A stretch of DNA of 32,000 nucleotides from Pseudodesulfovibrio piezophilus C1TLV30 (GCF_000341895.1 NC_020409.1:1170001-1202000), one strand, 5' to 3'; shown: positions 3,024-17,128, numbered from the stretch's first letter. Made by a program: numbers and translations. Notes: generated by a model from the letters alone, not told the origin.

Positions 3024-3341
3024 TTACAAAGTTAAACTATCCCTCACCTCCGCGAAAACGTCCTCGAACCGCTTCACCGCCTTTCGGCACAGAACCATCA
3101 GCCCTGGAGCTATACCCATCTCGGCAATGGTGAAGTATCCCCACTCGGAGTTCTCAAAGTCGCCGCCCAGAACGACGCAGCCGGAGTACAGGCCCCTGCC
3201 ATTGGACTCTGCCGCCATCCAGTGAGAGTCAGATTCGAGACGGAAGAAGTGCAGCCATATCTCCTTGTCCTTGAGGGGGACGCCATCCGTCTCGCCTAGC
3301 CTGGGTATCTTTGCTTCGTGCTTCCTCCATCCCTCAGCCAT
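3024..3341 (-). CDS. DUF2958 domain protein (copy 2)
   Basis: Contains EIWLHFF..SDSHWMAAE..G..YSGCVVLGGDFENSEWGYFTIAEM, the conserved DUF2958 core as I remember it. Its ATG overlaps the stop of the upstream paralogue (ATGGCTGA). Confidence 0.8.
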   Translation of the reverse strand: MAEGWRKHEAKIPRLGETDGVPLKDKEIWLHFFRLESDSHWMAAESNGRGLYSGCVVLGGDFENSEWGYFTIAEMGIAPGLMVLCRKAVKRFEDVFAEVRDSLTL

Positions 3342-3660
3342 TCCATCCCCCTCCGTGCCGTTCCGACATGACCTCCTTGAACTCCCGCACCCTCCAGCCG
3401 TCCTCGACGCAGACCACGAACGGGCCTACCTTCAATTCGGTCAGCTCGGCCAGCGAGAAGTATCCCCACTCCGAGTTCATCATGTCGCCGTTCAGGACCG
3501 CGTAGCCGAAGAACGTGTCCTTGCCGTCGAACTCGGCGGCGTACCAGTGGGAGTCGCCGAAAAAAAAGTGCGCCCAGATCAGCTTCTCGTCGGCTGGCGT
3601 GTCCTCGGTCTCGTACAGCCTGGGCATCCTTGGCACCAAGCCTTTGCTCTTAGTCGTCAT
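3334..3660 (-). CDS. DUF2958 domain protein (copy 1)
   Basis: Contains KLIWAHFFFGDSHWYAAEFDGKDTFFGYAVLNGDMMNSEWGYFSLAEL. ATG at 3660 has AGGAG 7 nt upstream; the ORF track offers a longer N-terminus to 3702. Confidence 0.8.
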   Translation of the reverse strand: MTTKSKGLVPRMPRLYETEDTPADEKLIWAHFFFGDSHWYAAEFDGKDTFFGYAVLNGDMMNSEWGYFSLAELTELKVGPFVVCVEDGWRVREFKEVMSERHGGGWNG

Positions 3661-3760
3661 GCAGTGCTCCTGCCGCGCCGCCAGGGCGCGGCTGCTTCGC
3701 AAGTTGTTGGATCATGTCGAGCGAGGAGCGTCCGCGTCCCTGCCCGGCCCTTAGGAAACG

Positions 3761-3795: not shown

Positions 3796-4239
3796 TTAGG
3801 CATCTTTGGGAGCATCCTTGGCTTTCCCCTTGGCTGGCTTCTCCTTGTCGTCGGGCTTCTTTCCCGTCCGCGTCCAGAGCTTCATCTCCTTCATGCGCTC
3901 GGACCGTGCCTTGGCCGTCTCCCGACAGGAAAGCGGAGCCCGTTTCTTGTAGCCCCACTTCTCCCGGTACTGGTCAGCTGTCAGCCCGTGCGACTCCAGG
4001 TGCTTCTTCGAAAGGGTCTTGAAGGTCCGTCCGCACTCCAGGCAGACGATGGACTTGTTCCTGATCGCCCGTTTTGGATCGCAAGGCGGTTCCTGCCTGG
4101 GCGGCTCAGCATCGCCATCAGCGATCCTTTTCAGCCTTTCCGCCAGCCTCTCGATGGTCTCGCACAGCTCGTCGACGGTCATCGGCCTGACCCCAGCCTG
4201 CGCCTCCACGATCCTGAGGGCATTCTCCATGTGACTCAT
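3796..4239 (-). CDS. MucR/Ros family zinc-finger transcriptional regulator
   Basis: Contains IVCLECGRTFKTLSKKHLESHGLTADQYREKWGY, the characteristic MucR/Ros C2H2-like block. AAGGAG lies 6 nt upstream of the ATG at 4239; an alternative ATG at 4245 abuts the SD. Confidence 0.85.
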   Translation of the reverse strand: MSHMENALRIVEAQAGVRPMTVDELCETIERLAERLKRIADGDAEPPRQEPPCDPKRAIRNKSIVCLECGRTFKTLSKKHLESHGLTADQYREKWGYKKRAPLSCRETAKARSERMKEMKLWTRTGKKPDDKEKPAKGKAKDAPKDA

Positions 4240-4451
4240 GCTCATCTCCTTGTTTTAGCTTGATATCAAAGGAGACGTCATTATATCGCTCTATGGGTTT
4301 CGTACACCCCGAAACAAATCACTTTGTGACCGCAAAACTCTCATTTCGAGCAAAGATCAATTGATTTAAACAACAAAGGCTTATTGCGAAATGACAACGG
4401 ATGATGATACCAACATCTTGAAATAGAATGCATTAGCCTTTAGAAGACACC

Positions 4452-5239
4452 ATGCCAAGAATCCCCAGAATCACCCTCGCCGAATGGAATTGCGTCTATG
4501 AGGGAAGAAAAGACAAACTATTTGACGACAAGACTCGTCCCAAAATCGCGACTCGACGTGCCCTCATCGCAAAATCTGGTGCTGAGCGACACCGCCAACA
4601 AGGCGAAATCGCCCTCAGGCAGGCATGGGAAAAAGGAAGCTCTGTCTCATTAGCTGCAACCCTTGCTCCCTTCAACAAACGTATCAAAAGGTGCGCTGTC
4701 ACAAGCATCGTCGAAACCATTGAGCTATGCACCTTTGTGATCAATCAAGCCGTATCCAAGCAACTCATTGATTTAATGGACAATCAACAAATAGAAATTG
4801 TAAGGAGTTTTGAGCAAAGAGCAAAAAAAAACTTGTTAACGACATATACTCCCACAACGCAAAGTTGGCGGCCGCTCAGATGGCTAAAACGCGAACTTTC
4901 GATCAAGCTAGGCAGGCCTTTATTGACAAGGTTTCTAAGCTCAGGACCGACATCAGTCCTCACTACCCTAGTTTTGTCCTCAAGCAAATCCTTGAGATAT
5001 TACGCTCGACACACCGTCCTTTTTCAGAGCAAAAGATTGTGGAGATCTATAAGACCTACGATCTCGGCATAAAGAACTTTCATTGCCTCACTCCGACAGA
5101 AAGAGCAAACACCCGGAGAAGGATTGCCAGGTGGATCGACCTGGTTCCACCCGGTGACCTAGCATGTGAAATAGCTCTCTCAATTTCACTCCTGTGCGAA
5201 AGACGCATGCTTCGAAAAATTCGATCCGACAAGAAGTAA
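4452..5239 (+). CDS. Hypothetical protein (family member P1) split into two frames at an A9 run
   Basis: Frame 3 (4452 onward) reads protein-like up to ~4830 and then degenerates. Frame 2 is open from 4814 and reads protein-like to the TAA at 5237-5239. The switch point is the A9 run at 4823-4831. A fused product would be about 262 aa. Confidence 0.55.
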
Positions 5240-5783
5240 GCACGCGGCCTACAAGCCTATCACAAGCAGTCCCACCTCAACTCCTTGGCGATAGCCCCTT
5301 GCGATCTGTCAACTCATCGCCAGGTACTACCCCCCATCTGACATAGCTATCTGCCACAGCGGGCACAAGCGTCTTCGAGCCACCAGTCGGCACCACATCT
5401 ACACAGCTTGAATTACTGATAAAACAGATCAGACAGCTAAGATGACAGAGCCTTTCCTCTAGCTGAAGCCTACTTTATTCTCGTCCAAGACACCTCACTT
5501 CGACATCTGATATAGAAAAACAAATGGCAGATTCGGTACATTGCGACCTCGCCAACCATTCTTGCCCCTTCCTTATACATGAACCGTCAACACTTACTAC
5601 AGCAGTTCAACCTGCTGTTATTAATCCTTTTTTCTGAATTCCACACACAAAAACTCATTTTTTATCTCAAGTGCAGATCAGAGCAGGAGCGTAATTGATA
5701 CAATTTAGGGGCGTCTCTCACCGGGAAAGACGATTTCTTTTAAACAGCGCGAAAGCGCAAACGAGTTCCAAGGAGGAACCGAC

Positions 5784-6680
5784 ATGTACGAATTTGGAAA
5801 CGAGATGCTGTGGACGATTGAAATGTTGACTTCTGACAACGAATCTTACGAATTCGCCTCCAGAGACATCAACAGGAAGTTGGACATCCCCAGCCCTGTG
5901 ATGGACCTCATGTTCTTTGGCCGCAAAGCAGGAGGTGCCGTTGACGCCATCTCTGAAGATGGGCTTGAATCCACTGAGGGAACATGTCCGACACTCTCTC
6001 GGTTTACAGCCGTCCTGACCCTCCGCAAGAAGTTCCACGACAAAGTTTACGCTCTGATGCGCGAAATCACTGCTCGGACCATCAGCGCACTCGACACGGA
6101 GGAGTTAGCTGAACTCTGGGAGGGCGAGGTCTCTTACCGGGAGATCATAGAGACGATTGCCTTTGTTCCGGGACTGAGCTTTTGCACACCGCTTTTCATT
6201 GAAGCAGCCCTTAGCTCCATGGTCAACACCCTTGAGAACTTCGAGGAGACTTCGCCGGAGGCTGTCAAATTCGCCTTGAAGCACATGGATGAAGTGGCAT
6301 GCTCCAAATTCGACAATAACTACTTCGTGAACATGATCGTAATGAGGAGAGAGGCCATCAACATCATTGAAGCTGGTGAGACGTTTGCCGATGGGTGGAA
6401 GGAAAAAGCGATTGAAGCCCTCTTCAGCATCGACTTCGAGTCCGAGATTCACCTGACGGATGAAAACGAACTGATGACTGAAGAGCTGGTGGCGGGCATA
6501 TTGGATGATGCTGCCCCGCACAACATCGCCATCACCGTTGCCTGGCTGTCGGCCATCTACCTCTACACCGAGTATGGCGATCGAATCGTTGATTTCTTCG
6601 ATATCGACATCAAAGACATCGAAGCAGAAGACCACCAGGAGAACGCTTATGACGAAACCCCTGACGGCCTGGCTGCGTAA
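5784..6680 (+). CDS. Hypothetical, strongly acidic protein (298 aa)
   Basis: AGGAGG at 5771-5776 lies 7 nt before the ATG. The composition is coding-like and very rich in D/E (for example DFFDIDIKDIEAEDHQENAYDE). I recognise no family. Confidence 0.8.
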   Translation: MYEFGNEMLWTIEMLTSDNESYEFASRDINRKLDIPSPVMDLMFFGRKAGGAVDAISEDGLESTEGTCPTLSRFTAVLTLRKKFHDKVYALMREITARTISALDTEELAELWEGEVSYREIIETIAFVPGLSFCTPLFIEAALSSMVNTLENFEETSPEAVKFALKHMDEVACSKFDNNYFVNMIVMRREAINIIEAGETFADGWKEKAIEALFSIDFESEIHLTDENELMTEELVAGILDDAAPHNIAITVAWLSAIYLYTEYGDRIVDFFDIDIKDIEAEDHQENAYDETPDGLAA

Positions 6681-6857
6681 ACGCTAACACGGAGGGATCA
6701 TAACGAAGCCAGGGGGACAGCTGGTACCTGCCCCCTGGCAAATGAAACTCCAACATGTTGTACGCAGAGGACTCTATACAGCAGAAACAAGTGATTGTGA
6801 ATGCAAGTCCCCCCTAACAGAATTAAGCCGCGAACACAGCGGAGTAAGGAATACACA

Positions 6858-7814
6858 ATGCCCAAGAAATCCAAGAAAAACACCAAGCGCTTGAAAGCCA
6901 ACGCAAAACGAACCGCAGCCAAGAATCTGGCCCGTAACAAGAAACGTGACGCCCAGAGGAAAAGCGACATTGAGCAGGCATTGCACCGACAGCAGCAGTC
7001 CACAGCACTTTTGACTGACATTGAACGAGAGCTGAACGACTCTGGTCGGTTCTACGTAGAACTTGACAGGATCAGCAGAGAGGGATTCGCGCAGACGCCG
7101 TTCGCTCTGGCTGCAGCAGAGGCAACCGATCTCATCCCCCATGACGAGTTGAGGGCGTATCGGAAAGCATGGGAAAAGGGAGACGTCATTGCACTGGCTG
7201 CCACCGTTGCCGCCAATAGCCCCGACTTGCTCACATACACACATGAAGCTATTCGATATGTAACCGAGCCGATTGCGCACCTGATTGGGCTTACAGCCAC
7301 AGACACTAACTGGAAAGGTTCTGAAGAGGATCTCTATGCATTTATCGCCGAGATGCTCAAGCCCACCGCAGACCAGATCGTGAGTGACATTTTGATCAGG
7401 GGTGCCAGAGCCGCCATGCAGGCTTGGATCGGCACAGGTGAAGATTCTTTTAATGGAATTCTTGGCATCACCAACCAGTACATACTCGACAGGGTGCAAA
7501 CTCAGGCTGCCCGTAACAGAGGCTACTACGAACAGCTCGCTTTGGATAATGCTCTCACCGTTCTTAAAAACGCAGATCACATCTCCACAAAGTGGAGAGC
7601 CGGAGCGAAAATCCTCCTGTCTTTCTTCGATGAGACATACTTTGAAAGCAGCGTCGTTCGGGCCGATTTCGTATCTGGCATAGTTGCCATGGTCCAGGAA
7701 AAGGCACTCTTCTTCCCTGCGCGAGAGTTCTCGGCTTTCATTGCCTGGGATGGAGCTATCGACACCTTTGAGCGTATGGACTCTGAAGGCAAACTGTTCG
7801 GCAGGGCCGCATAA
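6858..7814 (+). CDS. Hypothetical protein (family member P2) with a basic Lys/Arg-rich N-terminus
   Basis: ATG at 6858 follows GGAGTAAGGA. The N-terminus is MPKKSKKNTKRLKANAKR. It shares the RxAWExG..I....AT.A block and an 83-aa collinear region with 14689..15897. Confidence 0.75.
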   Translation: MPKKSKKNTKRLKANAKRTAAKNLARNKKRDAQRKSDIEQALHRQQQSTALLTDIERELNDSGRFYVELDRISREGFAQTPFALAAAEATDLIPHDELRAYRKAWEKGDVIALAATVAANSPDLLTYTHEAIRYVTEPIAHLIGLTATDTNWKGSEEDLYAFIAEMLKPTADQIVSDILIRGARAAMQAWIGTGEDSFNGILGITNQYILDRVQTQAARNRGYYEQLALDNALTVLKNADHISTKWRAGAKILLSFFDETYFESSVVRADFVSGIVAMVQEKALFFPAREFSAFIAWDGAIDTFERMDSEGKLFGRAA

Positions 7815-7913
7815 TCAACGAGCGCCAGGAGAGGCTTTCCAAGCTTCTCCTGGTACTCCGCAGGACAAGGAAAACCTACCTCAATTCACTCGAACAGAAT
7901 TGGAGACAAGAAA

Positions 7914-9638
7914 ATGAAGAATAATTATAAAGATATATCCAACGAAAGCCAACCCCACCCAACCCAATACGCGGCAAACGACAAACCGCTTTTACCAACT
8001 TTACCAACTTCCAAAATCGCTACGAAAAAAGCTTCTCTTGAAGCGGCCCCGACCTCGTCCGACTCTGGTAATCCGGCTAAGACCAATGCTGACGCAGATA
8101 AATTCGTACAGACCATCTTTGACGACGGCCTTACGCACCCCAAGGACATCGTGAGGCTTGAAGAAATGAACCACGAGTTTTTTGTTGCCCGGCACAATGG
8201 TAAAGTGGGAGTCATACAGGAAACCACCAACGAGAACAGCCAGACCGAAATCGTCCCGCTGACCGACCGCGAGCTGATGCTGCTCAAATCTCATGAGACT
8301 GTCAGACAGGTGAAGGGCTACGACAAAAACCACATGCCTAAGTATAAAAATGTACGGATTGCGGAAGCATGGCTCAACTGGAAATACCGACGCACATATG
8401 ACTCTACGGTTTTCCGTCCCGGTGGCTTGAACGAGGAGGAAGCCAAGCGGTTCTACAACCTGTTTCGCGGCTTTGAGGTGACGCCTGTTAAAGGTAAGTT
8501 CCCGAAGATCGAACACCACCTCAAGGAAGTATGGTGCAAGGGAAACTGGCGGCACTACAGGTACCTCACCAACTGGTTCGCCCACCTGCTCCAGTTCCCC
8601 ATGGACAAGGCCAAAGTCGCACTCGTGATCAAGGGCGGCAAGGGCTCGGGTAAATCCACCATCTTTGAAGGTATCTTCGAGCGAATCCTGGGAGCCGCAT
8701 ACTGCAAGGTAGACAGGCCCGAACAGGTCACGGGAAAGTTTAACGCCCACCAGCGCGGCAAGCTCCTGCTGGTCCTTGAAGAGGCTGTCTGGGCCGGAGA
8801 CAAGGCAGCAGAAGGCGCACTCAAGAGCATGATCACCGATAGAAAGACCATGATCGAACCCAAGGGCGTTGACGCCTACCAGGAGGACTCCTACTTCCGT
8901 CTGGCTTTCGTCTCCAACGAGCGTCGAGCCGTCCCCGCTACTGCTGACGAGCGGCGATACTTCGCCCTGTCCGTATCCGGCGACAAGGCCATGAACATCG
9001 ACTACTTCCGTGACCTGTGGGAGGAAATCGAAAACGGCGGCGTGGAAGCCTTCATGTACCACCTGCTGAACTGGAACGTGGATAAAGTGGAACTGTTGAA
9101 CCCGCCTCTGACCGAAGCCCTGTTCGAGGATATCTACGAGTCTTTCAGCGCATTCGAAAAATGGGTGTACGAGTTGCTCCACGACGAAGATGCCATTGAC
9201 TGGGGAAAACCCGTTCGAACCAAGGACCTCTACGACAACTACAAAGGATGGTACGAGGAAGCTTGTGGGCTTGGCAGCTTCCTCAAGGGAGGACAGATCT
9301 CCGGCCAGGGTAAGATGCGGTCGGTGGCCGAAGCGTTCTTCTCCGCCTCTCACAGAAAAATCGGCGGGCAGTCTCACCTGGAGATGCCGACCATGAAGAA
9401 TGCTCGCAAGATTTTCGAATCCAAGGTCAAGGCCGTGGTCATGTGGCGTGACGAAATGGGCAATGAACGCATCCCCGGCAACCGTTTGGCTCCTTCTGCC
9501 AGTCAGGTCCACGACAAGGACGCAGTTGATTGGTTTTATGAAGAAGAAATGAAGCCTGCTCCTAGCCAGCACTTCAACATCAGCAGCAACGACTGGTTCT
9601 TCCAGAACGAGATTGCCTCCGTGCATACAGACGACTAG
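7914..9638 (+). CDS. Superfamily-3 (D5/P4-type) NTPase, DUF5906-like primase-helicase family protein
   Basis: Walker A is VIKGGKGSGKST and Walker B is LLLVLEEA, followed by the FVSNE / RRYF blocks typical of phage/plasmid P4-type helicase C-terminal domains. GGAGA lies 7 nt before the ATG. Confidence 0.85.
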   Translation: MKNNYKDISNESQPHPTQYAANDKPLLPTLPTSKIATKKASLEAAPTSSDSGNPAKTNADADKFVQTIFDDGLTHPKDIVRLEEMNHEFFVARHNGKVGVIQETTNENSQTEIVPLTDRELMLLKSHETVRQVKGYDKNHMPKYKNVRIAEAWLNWKYRRTYDSTVFRPGGLNEEEAKRFYNLFRGFEVTPVKGKFPKIEHHLKEVWCKGNWRHYRYLTNWFAHLLQFPMDKAKVALVIKGGKGSGKSTIFEGIFERILGAAYCKVDRPEQVTGKFNAHQRGKLLLVLEEAVWAGDKAAEGALKSMITDRKTMIEPKGVDAYQEDSYFRLAFVSNERRAVPATADERRYFALSVSGDKAMNIDYFRDLWEEIENGGVEAFMYHLLNWNVDKVELLNPPLTEALFEDIYESFSAFEKWVYELLHDEDAIDWGKPVRTKDLYDNYKGWYEEACGLGSFLKGGQISGQGKMRSVAEAFFSASHRKIGGQSHLEMPTMKNARKIFESKVKAVVMWRDEMGNERIPGNRLAPSASQVHDKDAVDWFYEEEMKPAPSQHFNISSNDWFFQNEIASVHTDD

Positions 9639-9647
9639 CAACAAAAA

Positions 9648-9675
9648 GGGCGTCCAGGTCTTCACCTGGACGCCC
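9648..9675. terminator. Bidirectional hairpin terminator between convergent genes
   Basis: 12-bp perfect stem GGGCGTCCAGGT / ACCTGGACGCCC with a CTTC loop. It is flanked by an A-run on the left. Confidence 0.7.
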
Positions 9676-9699
9676 TATCCACCTTCAAATACTAGCTAA

Positions 9700-10509
9700 T
9701 CAACCTTCCTGCACGTATCCATTCTTAATAATGGCCTTCATGATGACGAGCCAGTCAGCGGGCGTCACCATGCGCCAATCCTCCTGGGAGTATCGGTCGG
9801 TCTGGTACGTCTCGTTCATGTAGACGAACGACTTGGAGCCGTTGTCGCCGTTCTGCTTCGCCATGGCGGCGTGGAGCGGAGGGCAGTTGTAGAGGACGAG
9901 CAACGGCATCTGGATCGCCATGTCCTCGCTAGCGTTCACCGCCGTCACGATGACCTTGTAGTAGCCCTCAGTGCTGCCTTTTGGTTGCTCAAACTTCACG
10001 AACTTGAGGTCTACGTCCACGGAAAAGCCTCTGTCGTGATAGTAACGACAAGCATCAGCGAAGGTGCGCATTGGAACTTGGTAAACGGGGTCCCAGAAGA
10101 CGCTCGTGAGGGTTGTCTCTACGACTTCCGTCTCATCGGGCGTCAGCCCGTCCGGCAGCTTGATCCAATCGTACTCGGCCAGTTTAGAGGCTGCCGGAGG
10201 CTGCGCAGCCTCCGGCTCGACATCAGCCAGGGCAGCATTGTCGATGCAAAGTCCCCAATGGGGATCGTCCACAGCGTCGCCCTTGACGCTACCCGTCTTG
10301 TCCCAGTGGTCGTCGAGGTACGCCCTGAGCTCGTCGCTCAAGCCTGAGTCCGGGCCGCAGCCTACGATGTGCCACTTCCCGTCGATCTCGATCTGCTGAA
10401 AGTTGTCGCCGCCCTTGAACTCCGAAGTGATCGGGCCTGTGAACGTCTCCGCAGCAGCCACTCCGCTTATCATCAGCACCAAAGCCAACGCCATCACGAA
10501 TTTCCGCAT
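9700..10509 (-). CDS. Hypothetical exported protein (269 aa)
   Basis: AGGAGA lies 9 nt upstream of the ATG at 10509. The N-terminus MRKFVMALALVLMISGVAAA/ETF looks like a Sec signal peptide. I recognise no family. Confidence 0.75.
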   Translation of the reverse strand: MRKFVMALALVLMISGVAAAETFTGPITSEFKGGDNFQQIEIDGKWHIVGCGPDSGLSDELRAYLDDHWDKTGSVKGDAVDDPHWGLCIDNAALADVEPEAAQPPAASKLAEYDWIKLPDGLTPDETEVVETTLTSVFWDPVYQVPMRTFADACRYYHDRGFSVDVDLKFVKFEQPKGSTEGYYKVIVTAVNASEDMAIQMPLLVLYNCPPLHAAMAKQNGDNGSKSFVYMNETYQTDRYSQEDWRMVTPADWLVIMKAIIKNGYVQEG

Positions 10510-10563
10510 ATAAATCTGTCTCCTATGATACAGGCAGGCTCAATGCTCCCGCCTTCGTCGCAC

Positions 10564-10592
10564 GAAAAAGGCCGAGGGCGACGCCCTCGGCC
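10564..10592 (-). terminator. Rho-independent terminator after the TM2 gene
   Basis: Stem GGCCGAGGG / CCCTCGGCC (10570-10578 / 10584-10592). On the minus strand it is followed by TTTTTCGTG. Confidence 0.75.
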
Positions 10593-10619
10593 CATCGTCT
10601 TTAGCCAGCACATCGAGAG

Positions 10620-10925
10620 CTACCACTCACGGAGCGGTGCCCCCGCGTTGTCCTTGAAGCTTCCCGTCCATATCTTGATGGAGTCCAGGAACCAGCCGAT
10701 GCCGAACAGGCCGCACGTCAGCGCGTAGGTGATGCCCATGCCGATCCTGCCGACGTAGAACTGGTGAACGCCGAACATGCCGCCGACGGCGCACAGGATG
10801 AGAGCCGTCTTTCGGCTCTTGTCCGACGACATCGTCGTGTATCGGCTGCCGCCGCCTGCGTTCACGTTGACGTTGATGTTCTGCTGCCCCTGGCCTGCTG
10901 CCTGCTCCGTGGTGTCTTGCGTCAT
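10620..10925 (-). CDS. TM2 domain-containing membrane protein
   Basis: Contains [46 protein letters not shown], the TM2 signature (G.HxFY.G...G......G.GI.W..D). AAGGAG lies 8 nt before the ATG at 10925. Confidence 0.85.
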
Positions 10926-10977
10926 GTCGAGTTCTCCTTGTCTTCTGTTCGAAAGTTGCAACTATCAAGACCAAACA

Positions 10978-11048
10978 CCGATATATCCACCCTATTTAGA
11001 AAAGTAAATATATATCAGGTCCACATTCGAGTAAGCCGGATATATCCA
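10978..11048. promoter_or_regulatory. Operator-like boxes in the divergent TM2 / XRE promoter region
   Basis: CCGATATATCCA at 10978-10989 and CCGGATATATCCA at 11036-11048; the core GATATATC is a perfect palindrome. A partial third copy AATATATATCAGG lies at 11007-11019. Confidence 0.5.
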
Positions 11049-11065
11049 TAGTTTGGAGGAAGATT

Positions 11066-11392
11066 ATGGACGATATCCTGCTCAAGCTCGGAAAACGCAT
11101 TCGGGAGTTTCGAAAAGAAAACGGCCTGTCACAGAGCCAGCTCGCGGAAAAGGCTGGCCTTAACGACAAGTACCTCGGCGAGGTCGAGAGGGGATCGAAC
11201 AACATCTCGATCAAGAACCTCGGCCAGATCGCGGCAGCCCTGGAGGTCGAGACCTTCGAGCTGCTCGACGGCTCCCACGAATATGAAGTCGACCGCAAGG
11301 AACTCGTCCAGAAGCTCCACAAAATCATCGAATCAGCGTCTGATGAGGAGCTCTGCGCCATCTATGGCTTCGCTTCTGACATCGTGAACTGA
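11066..11392 (+). CDS. XRE-family helix-turn-helix transcriptional regulator
   Basis: Contains LGKRIREFRKENGLSQSQLAEKAGLNDKYLGEVERGSNNISIKNLGQIAAAL, a canonical Cro/CI-type HTH. GGAGGA lies upstream of the ATG. Confidence 0.9.
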   Translation: MDDILLKLGKRIREFRKENGLSQSQLAEKAGLNDKYLGEVERGSNNISIKNLGQIAAALEVETFELLDGSHEYEVDRKELVQKLHKIIESASDEELCAIYGFASDIVN

Positions 11393-11490
11393 ACATCCTG
11401 TCTGTCTACATAAATAGAACTAGAGAGGTTTGCGGACCGCCCGCGAGCCCAGCTCTGGCTCTATAACTATATGTAATAAGGGAGGATGCA

Positions 11491-12075
11491 ATGTTAGAAA
11501 GCATCGACTTCAAGGCACTCTTCGCCGACCTCGGCCTCGACTCGACCACCAAGGGCGGCAACCTCGTCTGCCCGTTCTGCGGCAAGCACGCGTTCAGGGA
11601 GTACCGCGACAACGGCGTCGCTCGGTGCCACGCCTGCAATTGGGCTGGCAACGCCATCAACCTCGTCGACCAAGTGGAAGGCGTAGACGAGATCAAGATT
11701 CTCGCAACGCGCATGCACCTCTGCGACATCGAACACAGCAAGCAACGCTCCTGGAACGAGGCGTTCCGCAAGCTCGCCGACGACCTCGACTTCCTTGCCC
11801 AGGTCCGCGCCTACTTTGCCTTCTACAAGTCAGATCGAATGGGCGCGCCATACTACCAGCAGCAGTCGGGATACAGCCGATCCTACTTCGCGAAGGTCCT
11901 CAACGGGAACCTCGACAAGGTCTCGGCGAAGTCGTGGAAAGAGATCGTGGCGTTCTTGAGGAAGGCGATCAACGTCGGCCAGCTCAGGAAAGACATGATG
12001 ATGGGCTCGAAATATTGGAAGGAGACCATCAAGGACAAGGCTCTGCTGAGGGAGAGCGTGGACAAATTCAGGTAG
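11491..12075 (+). CDS. Zinc-finger protein resembling the primase CHC2-type Zn-binding domain; no catalytic domain seen
   Basis: Contains CPFCGK..(17 aa)..CHACNWAGNAINLV, which resembles the Zn-ribbon of DnaG/P4-type primases. GGGAGGA lies 4 nt before the ATG. The overlapping Arg-rich frame 11430..12092 is rejected. Confidence 0.7.
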   Translation: MLESIDFKALFADLGLDSTTKGGNLVCPFCGKHAFREYRDNGVARCHACNWAGNAINLVDQVEGVDEIKILATRMHLCDIEHSKQRSWNEAFRKLADDLDFLAQVRAYFAFYKSDRMGAPYYQQQSGYSRSYFAKVLNGNLDKVSAKSWKEIVAFLRKAINVGQLRKDMMMGSKYWKETIKDKALLRESVDKFR

Positions 12076-12440
12076 CCAGCTTTTTAGACTAAAAATCGAG
12101 AACGGGCGTTTGTGGGCATGACCTGCGAACGCCCTTCTTGCGTTATGGACGGCAAAGCCCATGAGTGGAGCACAGCTTGGGTCACACGTGATGAGCATGG
12201 GCTTGCTTGTTCGAACTCTCGTTCAGCAAAATTCCCAAATTGCAAATCAGAATTCATTAGACGACGCATTGTGCGCTTCGCGCATGACCACGCTCACCGG
12301 AAGAGGTGGGCAACGCCCACCCAACCGATGAGCGATGCTCATTGCTGCATTTCTTGGAAGAAATCCACCAGGCTGAATCGCTCCCGCCGCTTCACCTTCT
12401 GCTTGCTACTATTTATCGGAACACTGTGTCCGCAGGGGTG

Positions 12441-12490
12441 CTTTTCCGCACTTTTCCCGAAAAAAATTCATTTTTCCGATTTTTTTCTTC
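12441..12490. repeat. Five helically phased T/A tracts (10-bp period)
   Basis: The sequence reads CTTTTCCGCA CTTTTCCCGA AAAAAATTCA TTTTTCCGAT TTTTTTCTTC. The tracts recur every 10 bp, a pattern associated with intrinsic DNA curvature. Confidence 0.6.
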
Positions 12491-12519
12491 ATGAGCCACG
12501 TTCACGATAACACGCCGAC

Positions 12520-12651
12520 AATGTTAAGTTTTTGCCAAAAGTTAACATTCTCCAAAAAGCTACTGTGATTTTGAAGACTTATCGACCTCTCGAAATCGCC
12601 CGTCCTGAGAATGTTAAAAAAGCACGCAAAACCAAGCAGATACTTAACATT
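12520..12651. repeat. Four copies of AATGTTAA in alternating orientation forming nested inverted repeats
   Basis: Outer pair: AATGTTAAG 12520-12528 / CTTAACATT 12643-12651 (9 bp, perfect). Inner pair: TTAACATTCTC 12542-12552 / GAGAATGTTAA 12607-12617 (11 bp, perfect). Sites 1 and 2 also form a 28-bp palindrome at 12521-12548 (11/12 arm matches). Confidence 0.7.
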
Positions 12652-12656
12652 CAAAA

Positions 12657-13256
12657 ATGAGCCCTAGAAACGACAATCATCCACCCAAGGGAAGTTCCAT
12701 CACAGTGGAGCCCATCCGCTCCCTGAAAGCGATCTCGGCCATCAAAGCGATGCTCCACGACAAGCCGCGTGACCTTTTGCTCTTCGTCATGGCGACCAAC
12801 AACGGCATCCGATGCGGAGACCTCCTGCGGCTCAAGGTCGGCGACCTGCGCGGCAAGAGCGTCGACGACACCATCGCCGTGAAGGAGTCCAAGACGGGCA
12901 AGGCCAACGTCCTTGCGGTCAACGATTCAGTCCACTCAGCACTGACGCGGTTCCTCGCGTCAGGCTCGTTCTGCGACGACGCATACTTGTTCCGATCCCA
13001 GAAAGGAGACAACAAGCCGCTCACGATCCAGTCCGTCAACCGCATGGTGAAGGCGTGGTGCCGCGAGGCTGGCCTCGACGGCAACTACGGAGCCCACAGC
13101 CTGCGAAAGACGTTCGGCTACGTGCAGCGCGTTCACTTCGGCGTCGGCTTCGAGGTGCTGTGCAAGAGGTTCAACCACGCCTCGCCAGCCGTCACCATGC
13201 GCTACCTCGGCATCAGCGACACGGAAGTGGTCAGCATCCTGAAAAATTCGATCTAA
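12657..13256 (+). CDS. Short (199 aa) tyrosine recombinase consisting essentially of the catalytic domain
   Basis: The full catalytic set is visible: R (NNGIRCGDL), K (ESKTGK), HxxR (AHSLRKT), H (FNHAS), Y (TMRYLG). There is no N-terminal SAM-like DNA-binding domain and no obvious SD before the ATG. Confidence 0.85.
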   Translation: MSPRNDNHPPKGSSITVEPIRSLKAISAIKAMLHDKPRDLLLFVMATNNGIRCGDLLRLKVGDLRGKSVDDTIAVKESKTGKANVLAVNDSVHSALTRFLASGSFCDDAYLFRSQKGDNKPLTIQSVNRMVKAWCREAGLDGNYGAHSLRKTFGYVQRVHFGVGFEVLCKRFNHASPAVTMRYLGISDTEVVSILKNSI

Positions 13257-13361
13257 TTTCAGGAGGCGCGTTTACTTTTGGGGTCTCGATCTAGAGTTTA
13301 GATAATGGAGAGAGCGACTCTCCCCGTTTTTCATCAACCATTAAACCGGAGGTTATCAGCA

Positions 13362-13598
13362 ATGAGCAGACCGCTCCGTGTCGAAAGGCACTTCTTCAAC
13401 CAGCGCGAGGCAGCCGAGTACTGCGGCTACAGCACCGCGAAATTCAGGCAGTTTGCCAAGGAGTACGACATCCCCAAGTGCGGCCCGAACAGGGACAGGT
13501 ACCGCAAGGTGGACCTCGACAGCTTCATGGCCTGCCCCGGCGACTTCTTCAATCCCCTGCGCGTGCGCAAGGCCGGGTTCGTCCCGGTGGAGGTGTAG
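13362..13598 (+). CDS. Excisionase/AlpA-like helix-turn-helix DNA-binding protein
   Basis: Contains FFNQREAAEYCGYSTAKFRQFAKEYDIPKCGPNRDRYRKVDLDSFM, which fits the MerR-type excisionase-family HTH pattern. GGAGG lies 9 nt upstream of the ATG. The stop is 1 nt before the integrase ATG. Confidence 0.7.
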   Translation: MSRPLRVERHFFNQREAAEYCGYSTAKFRQFAKEYDIPKCGPNRDRYRKVDLDSFMACPGDFFNPLRVRKAGFVPVEV

Positions 13599-13599
13599 C

Positions 13600-14622
13600 A
13601 TGTCAGTCGGAGTCACCAAGGACGGACGCTGGTACGCCCAGTACCGCGTCGCCCACCGCAAGAGCCCGAAGAAGGAATACTTCGGCAAAGGGACCGAGGC
13701 CAAGAAGGCGGCCCACGAGCGTAACGCAGAGATCAACCTGATGAAGAAACGCGGCGAGGAGATCAGGGCGGGACACATCTACCTCGACGAGCTCGGCCAA
13801 ATATATCTCGACCACGAGAAGGCCCGTGGCCGCGAACGGAAGTTCCTCAAGGAGATGGCGAACAGGCTGAACAAGTCCTACCTGCCAGCCCTCAACCACG
13901 CGCCGATCCACAAGCTCAAGGCCGAGGACTTCAACGTGCTGGCACTTGAGTACGCCGACCTGTCGCCCAGTTCGTTTAACCGCTACATCACGTACCTCAA
14001 CATCATGTTCAACTTCGGCGTGGAGTTCGAGTACATCGAAAAGAACCCGATGGCGGCTTGGCGAAAGCGCGTGATGAAGCGAGAGAAGCCCCGTGACCTG
14101 AACATCGACGCGGAAGACATCAAAGCCATCCAGGATCACTCGCCGCTCCACGTTTACAAAGCGATCAAGCTGATCCTGAACACAGGCTGCCGCCCCGGCA
14201 AGAGTGAGCTGCTCAAGATCAAGTACAGCGACGTGGACTTCCACAACAAGCGCGTAAGGATTCGCGGCTCCAAGACGGCCAGGAGCGACCATTACGTCCC
14301 CCTGCGCGACGAGTTCCTTGAGGAAATCAAGGGCTGGCAGGCCACGGCGGAGTGCGACCACATCGTCGAGTACAGAGGCAAGCCCGTGAAGAGCTACACC
14401 AAGGCGTTCAGGACCGCCGTGAAGAAGTCCGACATCGGCAAGGAGGTGACCCCCTACAAGCTCCGTCACTTCTTCGCCTCCAGCCTGATCGCCAACAAGG
14501 CCGACATCAAGGCTGTCGCCTCCCTCATGGGCCACTCCGGCCCGGCGATGCTGTTCAAGGTGTACTACCACCTGATCGGCGACGGCGAGAAAGAAGCAAT
14601 CGAAAAGCTGTCTGACGTCTAA
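13600..14622 (+). CDS. Tyrosine-type site-specific integrase (phage integrase family, full length)
   Basis: ATG at 13600 follows GGTGGAGG. The N-terminus has an arm/SAM-like region (GRWYAQYRV..., FNRYITYLNIMFNFGVEFEYIEKNP). The catalytic R is in LNTGCRPGK, followed by YKLRH, GHS and YYH. The ORF-track N-terminal extension from 13378 is Ser/Thr/Ala junk that overlaps the xis-like gene. Confidence 0.9.
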   Translation: MSVGVTKDGRWYAQYRVAHRKSPKKEYFGKGTEAKKAAHERNAEINLMKKRGEEIRAGHIYLDELGQIYLDHEKARGRERKFLKEMANRLNKSYLPALNHAPIHKLKAEDFNVLALEYADLSPSSFNRYITYLNIMFNFGVEFEYIEKNPMAAWRKRVMKREKPRDLNIDAEDIKAIQDHSPLHVYKAIKLILNTGCRPGKSELLKIKYSDVDFHNKRVRIRGSKTARSDHYVPLRDEFLEEIKGWQATAECDHIVEYRGKPVKSYTKAFRTAVKKSDIGKEVTPYKLRHFFASSLIANKADIKAVASLMGHSGPAMLFKVYYHLIGDGEKEAIEKLSDV

Positions 14623-14688
14623 GCCCACCAACAGCTTGGGTGCTGTTTTGTTGCCCCGAGCTCCATCCTTCCAATCCAGGACACGACC

Positions 14689-15897
14689 ATGAAAAAATTT
14701 CTTTCCATCGCGGAAGGCAAGCTCGTCAACGACGGGATGCAGCCGACCGCCAAGGCCAAGCTCGAGCTTCTGACGGACTCCGAGGACGCCCAGCCCACGT
14801 TCCCGTTCATACTCGAAAGCCTCGGCCTTCACGCCTGCCTGGATGCCATGGACGCCGTGCCTTACCAGCACGAAGATTTCGTAGAGACTACGCTCAGGCT
14901 GCTCGCCATCGACGCCGCATACCGCGTCATGCCCCTCTGGGAGAACACAGAAGTCAGCCAGGACGGCCTCAAGGACCTCCTGCAACTGGCACACCTTTAC
15001 GCACACGGCGAGGTTGAGCACGAGGAGTACCAGGAACGCATGTGGGAGGTCGCCCAGCCGATCATGCGCGAGGACAAGTCTCACTCCAGCATCACCGCTG
15101 CTCAGACGGCAAGGGACTGCGCCCTGCTCTCCGCGTCACACAGCCTCATCCCGGCCCTGAACAGAGCCATAGAGGCCGTGCAGAGCCACCACGGAGGCAT
15201 CGCGAGGGGCTGCGCGTACAGCTACAAGGCCGACCAGGAACACGCCCTGCGCTCCGCCTGGGAGCACGGAGGCCCGATCTCGTTCGGCGCAACGTTCGCC
15301 GTCACGTCAAAGCACGTCCTGGCCGCTGTCGAGGCAGAGATATGGCACGTCGCCTACACCATCGCCGACGAGCTGCTCGGATTCGTCGGCTACGAGAACG
15401 TTGGTATCACCCAAAAGGAGATGAGGAGCTTCCTCATGGAGGCCCTGGCATCAGCGGGCGAGGACATCGCACACGAAGTATTGCACAAGGGAGCAAGGCT
15501 CGTGATCGACACGGCAATGGCTGCCGGATCGTTTGATGAAGCGAGGGATTTAGCGCGAGACGCCGCTCAGGGAGTGTTCAGAGACGCCTGCTCCGATCCC
15601 GACATGTACGAGCAGCTAGCTATCGGCAGGACGGCAATCGCGACAGCCTGCCACGACTTCGAGGACCACGAGGCGTTCGCCATCTGCCACGCCCTGCACG
15701 ACCTCCACGAGGGGAGCTTTTACAAGATTCACCCGATCAACGCCAAAGCGAATGAGATAGCCAAGATCGTCGCCCTAGCTGCCAGGAAGAAGCTTAGCTT
15801 GGAGCAAATGGCGTATGCTGCCGCAAGTGGCTACGCTGGCAATGTAGAGATGGGTATCCAGACAGATGTTCTGTCTCATTTTTTGTCAGACGCATAG
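14689..15897 (+). CDS. Hypothetical helical protein (family member P3, 402 aa)
   Basis: The composition is coding-like (Ala/Glu/His-rich, helical). It shares LRSAWEHGGPISFGATFA and an 83-aa collinear block with 6858..7814. The long opposite-strand ORF 13603..15084 is a GC shadow. Confidence 0.75.
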   Translation: MKKFLSIAEGKLVNDGMQPTAKAKLELLTDSEDAQPTFPFILESLGLHACLDAMDAVPYQHEDFVETTLRLLAIDAAYRVMPLWENTEVSQDGLKDLLQLAHLYAHGEVEHEEYQERMWEVAQPIMREDKSHSSITAAQTARDCALLSASHSLIPALNRAIEAVQSHHGGIARGCAYSYKADQEHALRSAWEHGGPISFGATFAVTSKHVLAAVEAEIWHVAYTIADELLGFVGYENVGITQKEMRSFLMEALASAGEDIAHEVLHKGARLVIDTAMAAGSFDEARDLARDAAQGVFRDACSDPDMYEQLAIGRTAIATACHDFEDHEAFAICHALHDLHEGSFYKIHPINAKANEIAKIVALAARKKLSLEQMAYAAASGYAGNVEMGIQTDVLSHFLSDA

Positions 15898-15898
15898 C

Positions 15899-15935
15899 AA
15901 CTTCGCTCAGTGGTCCAACAAAGCGGCCCACTTCT
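15899..15935 (+). mobile_element. Orphan right-end terminal repeat of an IS related to the IS3-family element at 27366-28659
   Basis: GCTCAGTGGTCCAACAAAGCGGCCCACTTCTGG (15904-15937) matches GCTCAGTGGTCCGATAAAGTGAACCCACTTCTGG (28628-28661) at about 29/34 positions. It ends with the same CCCACTTCT terminus. No transposase gene is attached. Confidence 0.6.
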
Positions 15936-16043
15936 GGGGCTTGATTTGTCGTTTTAAACAAAAGAGCTTCGAGATACGGGCACAACACAAATTCCGACTA
16001 TGATTCATTCCCCAGACTTAAGCCTTAATCGGCGGGCCTCGGC

Positions 16044-16253
16044 TTAAGAGTTATTAGGGTCGTCCTTGCGGGAAGGCCTGTGCCCCCTCAGTTCGTACGG
16101 GGCTACCAGCCAAACTGCTCCAAGCAATATAATGGTGAGGAGCGCCATATTGACGGTCGCAGAACAGATCAGCCCTGCCGAAAAGCCGTTGCTGATGGCT
16201 GATGTAGTCTGGCTGAACTCGTTAGGTAGCTGGAATATATTGATGAAGTTCAT
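16044..16253 (-). CDS. Small hypothetical membrane protein (69 aa)
   Basis: AAGGAG lies 7 nt upstream of the ATG at 16253. There is one clear hydrophobic span (VNMALLTIILLGAVWLVAPY). It sits in an AT-rich junction region. Confidence 0.5.
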   Translation of the reverse strand: MNFINIFQLPNEFSQTTSAISNGFSAGLICSATVNMALLTIILLGAVWLVAPYELRGHRPSRKDDPNNS

Positions 16254-16483
16254 TGTCTTTCTCCTTGTCTTGCTCGCTAAGGCACATTCTTTGTCCTGAA
16301 TCTACAACCACACTGTATGAAATTGTTGCTGAGGCAAGTAGATGATTCCTTCTAAATTCTTGTCTGATTCTCCGAAAGAATGTGGGAATAGGCGGCAATA
16401 AAAGAATAACCCTGCCTTATTCTCCGGGAGACACAGATTTGTGCTCCCATCAAGGCAGGGCTTCATGTCGGGGGGAGGCGTGG

Positions 16484-17116
16484 TTAACGGATGAAGTCGG
16501 TTAGGGACCGTGCTTCTTCTTCAGGTAAGGCGATGCCCGCTTTCAGACCCGCTTCCTTGCATTTGAGCACCCAGGCCATGTTCTTGCCGAGCACACGCAT
16601 GATTTGCACGCCTTCCTCGTCCTTCATAACGTCCTCCGGCGTGCGACCATGAACCATGTTCCAGTATTGGGACGAGACCACGGGCATTTCACCCCAAGTC
16701 ATGTATTTATTCAGCTGATCAAGGGTCGCGGTGGTGCCTGCCCTTCTGGCAGAGGCGATGGCCGCGCCGGGCTTGAGCCGGAAAAGCCTTTGGCCGGAGA
16801 CATAGGTGGAATAGAACAGCCTGTCCATGAATGACGTCATCGAGCCGGAGGCGGCAGCGTAATGGACGGGCGAGCCGAAAACGAAACCGTCTGCGTCCTT
16901 GGCGAGCTCCGCGAACTCGTTGACCTTGTCCTTGAACACGCACTTGCCGTCCTCGGCGCATTTCATACACGCGATGCACCCGGTCATGGGCTTGATGCCA
17001 ACCTGAAAAATCTCGGTCTCGATGCCTTCATTGTTCAAGGCTTCCTCCACGATTTTCAGGGCGGTATAGGTGCAGCCCCTCGGGTGCGGGCTGCCGTTAA
17101 CCAATAGAACTTTCAT
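16484..17116 (-). CDS. FMN-dependent NAD(P)H oxidoreductase, iron-sulfur flavoprotein (Isf)-like
   Basis: The flavodoxin-like fold start is MKVLLVNGSPHPRGCT. A compact Cys cluster GCIACMKCAEDGKC (CxxCxxCx5C) is followed by GFVFGSPVHYAAASG. Confidence 0.85.
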   Translation of the reverse strand: MKVLLVNGSPHPRGCTYTALKIVEEALNNEGIETEIFQVGIKPMTGCIACMKCAEDGKCVFKDKVNEFAELAKDADGFVFGSPVHYAAASGSMTSFMDRLFYSTYVSGQRLFRLKPGAAIASARRAGTTATLDQLNKYMTWGEMPVVSSQYWNMVHGRTPEDVMKDEEGVQIMRVLGKNMAWVLKCKEAGLKAGIALPEEEARSLTDFIR

Positions 17117-17128
17117 TTCTCTACTCCG

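Follow-up and report, generated by a model that had tools for sequence, protein, structure and literature searches.

The described systems closest to the locus analysed here are immunity proteins and small integrative elements. Imm5 is a mostly-alpha immunity domain that is found, fused to other immunity domains, in multi-domain 'polyimmunity' proteins (Zhang et al. 2012, PMC3482391). P4-like/PICI-like satellites and small integrative mobilisable elements with accessory hotspots share with the present locus a tRNA-targeting tyrosine integrase, an AlpA/HTH_17-type Xis and a D5/DUF5906 primase-helicase. The window, which is the whole stretch of 32,000 nucleotides that was analysed, lies in the chromosome of Pseudodesulfovibrio piezophilus, a deep-sea sulfate reducer, inside an integrative element targeting tRNA-Thr(CGT). 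A sequence-only reading of this DNA had described three divergent copies (P1, P2 and P3) of an unrecognised helical protein family scattered through a mobile block.

The element and its gene order

The assignment to a mobile element was borne out, and the three core neighbours named for the copies were correct. A ROS/MucR-type regulator (3796-4245, minus strand; Pfam PF05443, 4e-40) is conserved in related elements and is divergent from the gene string P1-P4-P2-helicase, in which P4 is a probable fourth copy introduced below. The DUF5906/D5-type SF3 helicase (7914-9638, plus strand, as are all features that follow; Pfam 9e-25, PHROG 'DNA primase' 7e-48) stands directly after P2. The recombination module (12657-14622) was delimited by Pfam and PHROG matches and by gene calls in the related loci L001, L002 and L004, and comprises a 199-aa integrase-like ORF (12657-13256), the Xis/HTH_17 gene (13362-13598) and a 340-aa tyrosine integrase (13600-14622). 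The attachment-site junction (26868-27130) consists of a conserved arm of ~210 bp with GGTATAC-type repeats, followed by the 3′-terminal 48 nt of tRNA-Thr(CGT) (27082-27130). This segment recurs in L001, twice in L002 and twice in L004, and aligns to the intact tRNA-Thr(CGT) genes of L009, L010 and L013. All family members of known context sit on one family of elements that targets this tRNA and carries the MucR-type regulator, the SF3 helicase, two integrases and Xis.

The copies had been described as lying beside different core genes; the neighbours stand, but the status of the copies differs. P1, P4 and P2 occupy a variable early region, bounded by the MucR-type regulator on one side and the replicative helicase on the other. 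Elements differ in how many copies this region carries (0 to 4), and the total per element ranges from 1 to 5, with five in L013 and two adjacent copies in L011. The L004 element has P3 and lacks P1, P2 and P4, and these three are thus dispensable. P3 (14689-15897; 402 aa, net charge -27) closes the conserved core, beginning 66 bp past the integrase. In all contexts seen, the gene directly downstream of the integrase is of the P3 type, even at ~30% identity, and in L012 it begins 2 nt past the int stop codon. P3 also adjoins a variable cargo slot, which in relatives holds defence-type genes (dCTP deaminases, a DUF4011 helicase). The P3 protein matches a hypothetical protein of P. piezophilus at 100% identity and has 22 orthologues at 61-89% identity. 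Its dN/dS of ~0.2, like that of the integrase, indicates purifying selection and thus a functional gene; no gene-wide signature of positive selection, as would be expected in an arms race, was found.

Kinship of the copies

The motif strings reported for P1, P2 and P3 were all present in the sequence. The ungapped P2-P3 block of 83 residues, counted by hand in the earlier reading, was reproduced exactly, with 24 of 83 positions identical from the shared Arg onward (P2 7161-7409, P3 15250-15498). Smith-Waterman scores were compared with 500 composition-preserving shuffles, and no shuffle equalled the real score for any of the three pairs. P2-P3 scored 125 against 37±5.6 for the shuffled sequences (z=15.6), while z was 9.3 for P1-P3 and 6.1 for P1-P2. 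By compositionally adjusted BLASTP, P2 and P3 matched over 192 aa (E 2e-9, 24% identity). The family profiles of P2 and P3 matched at E 3e-7, and the C-terminal half of P3 alone at 2e-8 (hhalign 95%, E 2.3e-8); P1-P3 and P1-P2 profile comparisons gave E 1e-6 and 3.6e-6, respectively. The alignments are shallow, with 2-19 sequences per subfamily, and the profile statistics and AF2 models are therefore limited in depth.

The P1 comparisons are complicated by a frameshift. The ORF 4452-5072 is a frameshifted form of a gene that extends over 4452-5239, reading in frame 1 from 4452 to ~4829 and then in the frame of 4865-5239; the intact product would be 262 aa in length, with a pI of ~10 and a charge of +22. 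Direct reading of the sequence showed an A9 homopolymer at the frame break (4823-4831), a point across which P1 orthologues read ..FEQ(K/R)AKK(K/E)LVNDIYSH... Intact orthologues of 262 and 290 aa (P0028, P0029) cover both frames, and P0028 matches P1 at 79% identity and 100% coverage. The truncated 206-aa product is recorded from NCBI, JGI and Logan assemblies, and P1 is inactivated here by the frameshift. The motif RQAWEKGSSVSLAATLAP of P1 is encoded at 4617-4673. Once the frameshift is repaired, ~100-130 domain residues are held in common with the other copies: repaired P1 matched P3 over 131 aa (BLASTP 1.9e-7), and the hhalign alignment of P1 with the P2 family runs through the frameshift.

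P2 (6858-7814; 318 aa, ending in ..GRAA) has 318-aa orthologues that start at MPKKSKK. Its first 60 residues form a basic, Lys/Arg-rich tail (net +12), after which comes the shared helical domain (residues ~60-318, net -12). An AF2 model of residues 55-318 (pLDDT 76, pTM 0.71) predicted eight helices for the domain, and their order matches that of the P3 model.

P1, P2 and P3 thus have similarity above shuffled controls, a common domain and a matching predicted order of helices, and these data identify them as true, ancient and diverged paralogues of one family. The copies had been called old on account of low identity, and at ~24% between P2 and P3 identity is indeed low, yet the paralogy is significant. 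The difference in local GC noted earlier was likewise recovered (0.46 for P1, 0.52 for P4 and P2, 0.60 for P3). Chance resemblance of Ala-rich helical sequences, to which the ~24% identity, the Ala-rich composition (15-19% Ala) and the short P1 match within the deposited ORF could be ascribed, was rejected as next to impossible, since shuffles never reached the real scores (z 6-16), the BLASTP match of 2e-9 survived compositional adjustment, a HMMER search of the whole library returned P1-, P2- and P3-type proteins as nearly its sole matches, the P1 alignment carries on past the repaired frameshift, and the predicted helix order agrees.

The count of three copies is probably to be revised to four. 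P4 (5784-6680; 298 aa, pI 4.2, net charge ~-39, ending in ..PDGLAA) is the most diverged, probable paralogue and has lost the AW..G motif. Direct comparison of P4 with the established members was non-significant (E 0.038, for P4-P2, and 0.4), and an HMM iterated over local ORFs did not recruit it. The link is an intermediate sequence, a 371-aa protein of L013, which matches the P4 family on one side (hhalign 92%, E 6.5e-7, 219 columns; BLASTP 4.6e-11) and the P2 family (E 3.7e-6) and the P1/P2/P3 HMM (E 2.6e-8) on the other. By this transitive link, significant on both sides, P4 is probably a paralogue of P1-P3.

The shared domain and the N-terminal module of P3

The shared domain is ~220 aa in length and is predicted to be all-alpha, with eight long helices. 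Its hallmarks are (A/V)-W-x-x-G-x-x-(I/V)-(S/A)-x-x-A, followed by GAR and then by YEQLA(I/L). The P3 copy (15166-15894, residues ~160-402) aligns to the P2 family and carries AWEHGG at 190-195, GAR at 268-270 and YEQLAIGR at 307-314; pLDDT was ~86-97 along it. The AF2 models of P2 and P3 are helical throughout, in keeping with the earlier description. Each copy bears a different extension: a basic C-terminal one in P1, the Lys/Arg-rich tail in P2, a very acidic body in P4 and the Imm5-like module in P3.

The remark that the family was not recognisable also held. The domain was unmatched in Pfam, PHROG, NCBIfam, PADLOC, PDB and BFVD: P1-P4 had no match in PADLOC-DB at E <= 1, PHROGs gave no meaningful match for the paralogues, and the best PDB profile match had an E of 0.15. 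The profile and Foldseek searches yielded no confident match to a characterised domain or fold. Foldseek against PDB gave best E values of 0.16 (P3) and 0.51 (P2 domain), and the best BFVD match had an E of 0.24; TM was <= 0.23 save for one match of 168 columns (prob 0.80, E 1.7) to an 'Imm-5-like' protein of a phage. Among 1.84 billion (1.84e9) representatives, the domain profile matched only 12 proteins by HMMER, and no family members were found in phage and plasmid collections or in IMG/VR. The domain is thus found almost solely on one element family and, on profile and fold evidence, constitutes a previously undescribed, narrow family. Positions conserved across the family are mostly Ala, Trp, Gly or aliphatic, and no catalytic-type constellation was found among them; transmembrane segments were not found either.

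The N-terminus of P3 is a separate module (14761-15042, residues ~25-118; RLLAIDAAYRVMPLWE...AHLYAHGE). Positions 27-118 of the P3 family matched the protein P0038 (hhalign Prob 96%, E 3.3e-9), which itself passes the Pfam model PF21805 (Imm5_like) with 42.2 bits against a cut-off of 25. Compared with Pfam Imm5 directly, P3 fell below the cut-off of 25 (15.6 bits, E 0.018, residues 72-141 only), and weak, sub-threshold Imm5 matches were obtained in 14 of 19 P3 orthologues (best E 0.0045). No Pfam Imm5 match was found for P1, P2 or P4, and hhalign comparisons of the N-terminal part of P3 with its own C-terminal part, P2, P1 and P4 gave nothing significant. The module, and the module only, is therefore a homologue of a genuine Imm5_like protein.

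Candidate functions and comparison with known systems

The sequence-only reading had suggested immunity, anti-defence or decoy proteins as a speculation. We tentatively read the domain as a putative non-enzymatic protein-binding scaffold and the paralogues as stoichiometric binders or inhibitors of the immunity or anti-defence type, each neutralising a different partner, at somewhat below even chances. Candidate partners are toxins, defence effectors and proteins of a competitor element or phage. In the integrated state P3 would be co-expressed with the integrase, and the early-region copies would be expressed on derepression of the element. A binder rather than an enzyme is suggested by the loss of the AW..G motif in P4, the lack of a catalytic constellation and the lack of transmembrane segments. 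An immunity-type role is favoured by the homology of the P3 N-terminus to an Imm5_like protein, by the several diverged and often tandem copies per element, which resemble polyimmunity loci, and by the dispensability of P1, P4 and P2 together with the position of P3 next to the defence-gene cargo slot. Against it, the Imm5 link is confined to the P3 N-terminus, outside the shared domain, and P3 itself stays under the Pfam Imm5 cut-off. The lack of gene-wide positive selection also speaks against it. No cognate toxin gene adjoins any copy in the window and no toxin domain occurs among the window neighbours; among relatives, a nearby YD-shell fragment occurs in L004 alone, encoded on the opposite strand. 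Rather doubtful is a wider form of the proposal, in which the AW..G domain would define a new superfamily of modular inhibitors (immunity/anti-defence), tandem-diversified in undescribed satellite-like tRNA-Thr elements of sulfate-reducing bacteria. The effectors neutralised would then differ from paralogue to paralogue and belong to the host, a phage or a rival element, and the integrase-linked, Imm5-fused P3 would protect a lysogen-like state.

Element housekeeping would be just as compatible with the strict P3-integrase linkage and with the basic tails found in P1 and P2. P3 would then be an integrase-coupled accessory whose tasks might include controlling excision/integration, governing occupancy of the att site or keeping a second element out of tRNA-Thr. 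The early copies would bind DNA or RNA and serve, alongside the MucR-type regulator and the SF3 helicase, in regulation or loading. This is possible but somewhat unlikely. The constancy of P3-type genes behind the integrase, down to ~30% identity and a gap of 2 nt in L012, purifying selection equal to that on int, the charge of P1 (pI 10, +22) and of the P2 tail (+12), the position of P2 and of a 282-aa P. mercurii copy directly upstream of the helicase, and the site competition evident from tandem as well as decayed elements at one and the same tRNA all argue for it. It is opposed by the L004 element, which replicates and integrates without P1, P2 and P4, by the failure to detect an HTH or other DNA-binding domain, by the strongly acidic character of P3 and P4, and by the separate Xis (HTH_17) already on the element. 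Known directionality factors are small.

The minimal core of integrase, HTH_17/AlpA-like Xis and D5-type helicase without virion genes, and the long-helix, lineage-specific character of the proteins, would also fit helper manipulation by a phage satellite, with the paralogues as helical scaffold, capsid-size or packaging-redirection factors in a role analogous to that of phage P4 Sid/Psu or SaPI CpmB/Ppi. This is improbable given that the proteins showed no sequence or fold likeness to phage or satellite proteins (PHROG, BFVD, phage tblastn), are absent from IMG/VR and vary in number from 1 to 5 across elements; we know of no helper phage for the element. A helical-bundle effector or toxin in place of an inhibitor, such as a ClyA-type pore-former-like protein or an abortive-infection effector, is very improbable: the top-ranked PDB matches of the P3 model were alpha-pore-forming components (PaxB, HblL1, SmhA, ClyA), but these were non-significant (E >= 0.16, TM <= 0.16), as is usual for long-helix bundles, the P2 model matched unrelated helical proteins, and there is no signal peptide or hydrophobic head (19-residue Kyte-Doolittle maximum 1.1 in P2 and P3).

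Compared with known systems, the proteins resemble the ClyA family in being elongated long-helix bundles, but scores are at noise level and a hydrophobic membrane-insertion element is lacking here. The element is like P4-like/PICI-like satellites in lacking virion genes and in having a variable cargo slot by the integrase end, defence-type in relatives; it differs in its MucR-type regulator and extra 199-aa integrase-like gene and in having no recognisable sid/psu/delta, cpm/ppi or terS-like genes, and described satellites have no counterpart of the paralogue family. With Imm5 and Imm5_like (PF14423, PF21805), both mostly alpha, the P3 module shares the signature R..xD..xR.xPL(W/F)E and A(H/R)LYA.G, and its fusion to a second domain recalls the known fusions of Imm5. 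However, P3 lies below the Pfam threshold, the common domain of P1-P4 is distinct and unmatched, and the setting is an integrative element without a toxin cassette, no deaminase, CdiA-CT or other polymorphic toxin being adjacent. Finally, polyimmunity loci share with this element several diverged immunity-like helical copies, some in tandem, without linked toxins, and one two-domain fusion; here, unlike in those loci, the shared domain belongs to no named Imm family, its immunity role is putative, and the copies are interleaved with the element's own regulator, replication and recombination genes.

Divergent paralogues and the helical domain that they share

Translation of the three reading frames in which the sequence-only reading had seen one protein family, P1 (from 4452), P2 (6858-7814) and P3 (14689-15897), all on the plus strand, matched the protein sequences it quoted. 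As it had claimed, P2 (nt 7161-7409) and P3 (nt 15250-15498) aligned without a gap for 83 residues from the motif Arg, with exactly 24 identities. Smith-Waterman comparisons, each controlled by 500 composition-preserving shuffles, gave z values of 15.6 for P2-P3, 9.3 for P1-P3 and 6.1 for P1-P2, and the observed score was reached by 0 of 500 shuffles for any pair. BLASTP with compositional adjustment aligned P2 and P3 over 192 residues (E 2e-9, 24% identity) and matched P1 over the motif region (E 3e-5 and 2e-6). Alignment of family profiles by hhalign gave E 3e-7 for P2-P3 (132 columns), 2.3e-8 when the C-terminal half of P3 was used alone, 1e-6 for P1-P3 and 3.6e-6 for P1-P2. Judged by these sequence comparisons, the similarity of P1, P2 and P3 is genuine and far above chance, a chance resemblance being ruled out by the shuffle, BLASTP and hhalign scores alike. 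P3 matches a hypothetical protein from Pseudodesulfovibrio piezophilus at 100% identity, which places the window in the chromosome of that species.

P1 was upheld as a motif-bearing paralogue, but the reading frame proposed for it is frameshifted, its orthologues being intact across both frames. The latter half of ORF 4452-5072 appears non-coding, and the overlapping ORF 4865-5239 is protein-like; the two frames join at an A9 run (4823-4831). A query bridged over this run recovered intact orthologues of 262 aa and 290 aa, the former from P. profundus (79% identity, 100% coverage), and both read FEQ(K/R)AKK(K/E)LVNDIYSHNAKLAAAQMA across the junction. The repaired P1 aligned with P3 over 131 residues (E 1.9e-7), and the hhalign alignment with the P2 family spanned the frameshift, placing LVNDIYSHNAKLAAAQMA opposite IVSDILIRGARAAMQAW; the part of the domain present in P1 therefore extends well beyond the 19-residue motif. 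Since a truncated 206-aa P1 product is recorded from three assemblies, the frameshift is probably truly present in the strain. The A9 break may reflect a fixed pseudogene, phase variation of the tract or an error of base-calling in the homopolymer.

The count of three copies stood for P1, P2 and P3 but is probably one short, as a likely fourth, P4 (5784-6680, 298 aa), lies between P1 and P2 and is linked to them via a 371-aa protein of a related element (L013:10993-12108). Direct comparisons of P4 with P2 and P3 were non-significant (E 0.038 and 0.4-0.5), and P4 was not recruited by an iterated local HMM. The 371-aa protein bears the motif AIDEAWDRGMYIATAAA, matches the P1/P2/P3 HMM (2.6e-8) and the P2 family (3.7e-6), and aligns with the P4 family over 219 columns (hhalign 92%, E 6.5e-7) and with the D. 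caledoniensis P4 homologue by BLASTP (4.6e-11). P4 is thus a probable member of the family without the motif.

The expectation that these proteins would be all-helical was borne out by the predicted models. AlphaFold2, run on the joint alignment, placed eight long helices in P3 at about residues 160-402 (pLDDT about 86-97), with low confidence for the N-terminal 160 residues. A separate model of P2 (residues 55-318; pLDDT 76, pTM 0.71) showed these eight helices again and in unchanged order, preceded by two short ones. Positions conserved across the family (P3 numbering: A190, W191, G194, I197, A201, S207, L211, V221, I225, A226, F248, E251, L253, I260, R270, Y307, E308, L310, A311 and D323) are mainly small or aliphatic and include no catalytic-type constellation, and no paralogue has a convincing transmembrane segment. 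The appended parts differ: P1 (pI 10.1, net charge +22) has its own C-terminal region, P2 (domain net charge -12) a 60-residue Lys/Arg-rich N-terminal tail of +12, and P3 (-27) an Imm5-like module at its N-terminus, while no extension was found in P4 (-39). Three features, the pattern of conserved positions, the missing hallmark motif of P4 and the variety of appended modules, lead us to infer that the shared domain would serve as a binding scaffold and not as an enzyme.

The early-region paralogues carry ssrA-like Ala-Ala ends, conserved although the residues before them vary: PDGLAA in 3/3 of the P4 family (6663-6680 in the window), G(R/E)AA in 4/4 of the P2 family (7800-7814) and GQAA in a 282-aa copy of P. 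mercurii (L002 4594-4608). These C-terminal ends may serve as a signal for degradation or docking.

Distribution of the family and the Imm5-like module of P3

The family had been called unrecognised, and the shared domain indeed had no match in Pfam, PHROGs, NCBIfam or PADLOC; a profile search of all PDB sequences returned only noise (hydroxylamine reductase at E 0.15). Foldseek, run with both the P3 and the P2 model against PDB and with the P3 model against BFVD, gave a best E of 0.16 and TM-scores of at most 0.23, the top matches in all three being generic long-helix bundles. A cluster of Foldseek matches to ClyA-type toxins was rejected as kinship on noise-level scores and the absence of a hydrophobic segment. 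The shared domain is new by sequence and by fold search.

A joint HMMER profile searched against 1.84 billion cluster representatives found 12 proteins at E <= 1e-3, 11 of them P1-, P2- or P3-type or fragments thereof, and species genomes, 185,579 in all, yielded just four loci. Plasmid and phage collections contained no match to 4000-16500 by megablast or to P3 and P2 by tblastn, and the family was not found in an IMG/VR scan. The family is very small and lineage-restricted, ranging over Pseudodesulfovibrio and a few metagenome bins, with a dozen 50%-identity clusters world-wide. No paper on these elements or on Imm5_like was found; the genome paper describes seven genomic islands of unknown function in the strain (PMC3559428).

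The twelfth HMMER match, P0038, covers only the N-terminal region of P3. It is a true Imm5_like protein, scoring 42 bits with PF21805 where 25 is the cut-off, and it aligned with P3-family positions 27-118 (hhalign probability 96%, E 3e-9), with RLFAADCAERVLPLFE...ARLYAQG in P0038 corresponding to RLLAIDAAYRVMPLWE...AHLYAHGE in P3. Pfam Imm5 matches in P3 orthologues were sub-threshold yet consistent (14/19, best E 0.0045), and the BFVD match of best probability for P3 was a phage 'Imm-5-like domain' protein (probability 0.80, E 1.7). Comparative genomics led to the definition of Imm5 as an immunity domain, mostly alpha in structure, against DYW-type deaminase and CdiA-CT toxins; it is frequently fused to further immunity domains (PMC3482391). 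The possibility that the shared domain is a diverged repeat of the Imm5-like module gained no support from their comparison; the two showed no relationship there, so that the link to Imm5 is through fusion only.

Layout, attachment site and cargo of the element

Loci from D. caledoniensis, P. mercurii and P. thermohalotolerans were compared with others on several metagenome contigs; together they form one element family. Its common gene order runs from a minus-strand MucR-type regulator through a variable early region and a replication gene (DUF5906/SF3 helicase or another) to a zinc-ribbon protein of 194 aa, an integrase-like ORF of 199 aa, an HTH_17 Xis of 78 aa, an integrase of 340 aa and, last, P3. 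Nucleotide homology between elements ends at the end of P3, about 15873-15935. The 199-aa ORF (12657-13256), an integrase catalytic domain alone, is the best-conserved gene of the family (91-95% aa identity, dN/dS about 0.12), more so than the neighbouring full integrase. The helicase (7914-9638) is only 36-44% identical between elements, against 75-95% for flanking genes, ranges from 497 to 881 aa and is absent from L013; this divergence and absence point to replication-module swapping.

To the left, a 284-aa DUF4357 protein (480-1334) has a PADLOC match to PDC-S14, a candidate defence family, at 1e-106, and on the left side of the P. mercurii element (L002 1-2105) the same gene adjoins a type I methylase (HsdM). 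Left of the regulator lie two minus-strand genes (1361-2916) that are missing in the relatives examined, one with a Fic/DOC domain (1361-2047) and one with Sel1 repeats. Two adjacent small genes of 105 and 122 aa (3024-3702, minus strand) are mutual paralogues with a 114-nt direct repeat (3117-3230 and 3442-3555, 73% identity), and this pair is kept beside the MucR gene in all related elements. Two further minus-strand genes of the element lie at 9700-10509 and 10996-11361.

No att direct repeats flanking the block were found within the window; the left end, with the intact tRNA, lies outside it, and the right end was located by comparison with relatives. Scans of the window for tRNA and Rfam families were empty, and those for promoters and terminators uninformative. 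In the segment 26868-27130, which was found again in relatives, the 3' 48 nt of tRNA-Thr(CGT) come after an arm that bears GGTATAC-type repeats; intact tRNA-Thr(CGT) genes stand at the equivalent place in L009, L010 and L013. From these matches we infer that tRNA-Thr(CGT) is the integration site of the elements. The stretch 26868-27250 resembles a complete attP-type junction: a 210-bp arm with repeats TGGTATAC, GTATACCAGG and CCGGTATAC, the tRNA piece at 27082-27130, whose T-stem is element-specific and compensated, and, 3' of it, a hairpin terminator and more GGTATAC repeats that match sequence right after the intact tRNA-Thr in L013. This arrangement suggests two tandem elements, the right-hand one interrupted by an IS (transposase from about 27434). 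P3 3' fragments flank an att junction on both sides in L002 (12740-13575), and 5'-truncated P3 genes (residues 104-401) lie about 300 bp past a tRNA or tRNA fragment in L009 (10001-10891) and L010 (4448-5338); these remnants look like decayed elements at one integration hotspot.

Between P3 and the att arm lies a slot whose cargo differs from element to element. In the window (16484-26662) it holds a redox/detoxification-type cluster of an FMN reductase, three aldo-keto reductases and a TAT-signal flavodoxin, with a cupin, a CMD-family protein, alpha/beta hydrolases and an AraC regulator. Defence-type genes occupy the slot in relatives (two dCTP deaminases in P. mercurii, a DUF4011 helicase in D. 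caledoniensis), with Dnd genes nearby; that of P. thermohalotolerans has a YD-shell fragment.

Candidate roles of the paralogues

Wherever upstream sequence exists, a P3-type gene directly follows the integrase, even for members about 30-35% identical (L005, L012). Elements carry one to five family copies: P3 is the sole copy in L004, two members lie side by side in L011, and L013 has P1-type (282 aa), P4-type (324 aa) and P2-type (341 aa) copies, the 371-aa protein and P3. Pairwise dN/dS of P3 was about 0.2, equal to the integrase value and alike in both halves, and that of P2 was 0.13-0.30; no sign of gene-wide positive selection or an arms race was seen (about 0.13-0.30 throughout). Judged by these ratios, the genes assayed are functional and under purifying selection. 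P3 is a core integrase-linked gene with an Imm5-like fusion, and P1, P4 and P2 are dispensable early-region genes, P1 being broken.

Our preferred but tentative interpretation, held with less than even confidence, is that the paralogues act as inhibitor- or immunity-type accessory proteins. It draws on the fusion to an Imm5-like module, on a multiplicity and tandem order reminiscent of polyimmunity, on the dispensability of the copies, on their place in a putative early operon and on the neighbouring defence-rich cargo slot. The main rival, a housekeeping role for the element, would account for the strict coupling of P3 to the integrase, a selective regime like that of the integrase, the basic tails of P1 and P2 and the placing of P2 ahead of the helicase; we consider it somewhat unlikely. 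Satellite-type manipulation of a helper is improbable, and a toxin-like effector function more improbable still.

To our knowledge, mobile-element conflict systems of anaerobic sulfate reducers are almost unstudied. Were the inhibitor or immunity role true, it would add a structurally new domain of that type, a new small integrative-element family of these organisms and a case of polyimmunity-like diversification within an element's own early operon. As the family is tiny and taxonomically confined, general impact would be limited unless a mechanism emerges. For annotation, the domain and its hallmark AW..G motif, the four copies, the P1 frameshift and the element attachment site are now defined. 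On the sequence evidence, one integrative element holds four old paralogues, P4 being the probable one, of a new all-helical domain. The arrangement is familiar in kind: a diverged multi-copy accessory family on a mobile element, one member of which carries a known putative immunity module as a fusion.
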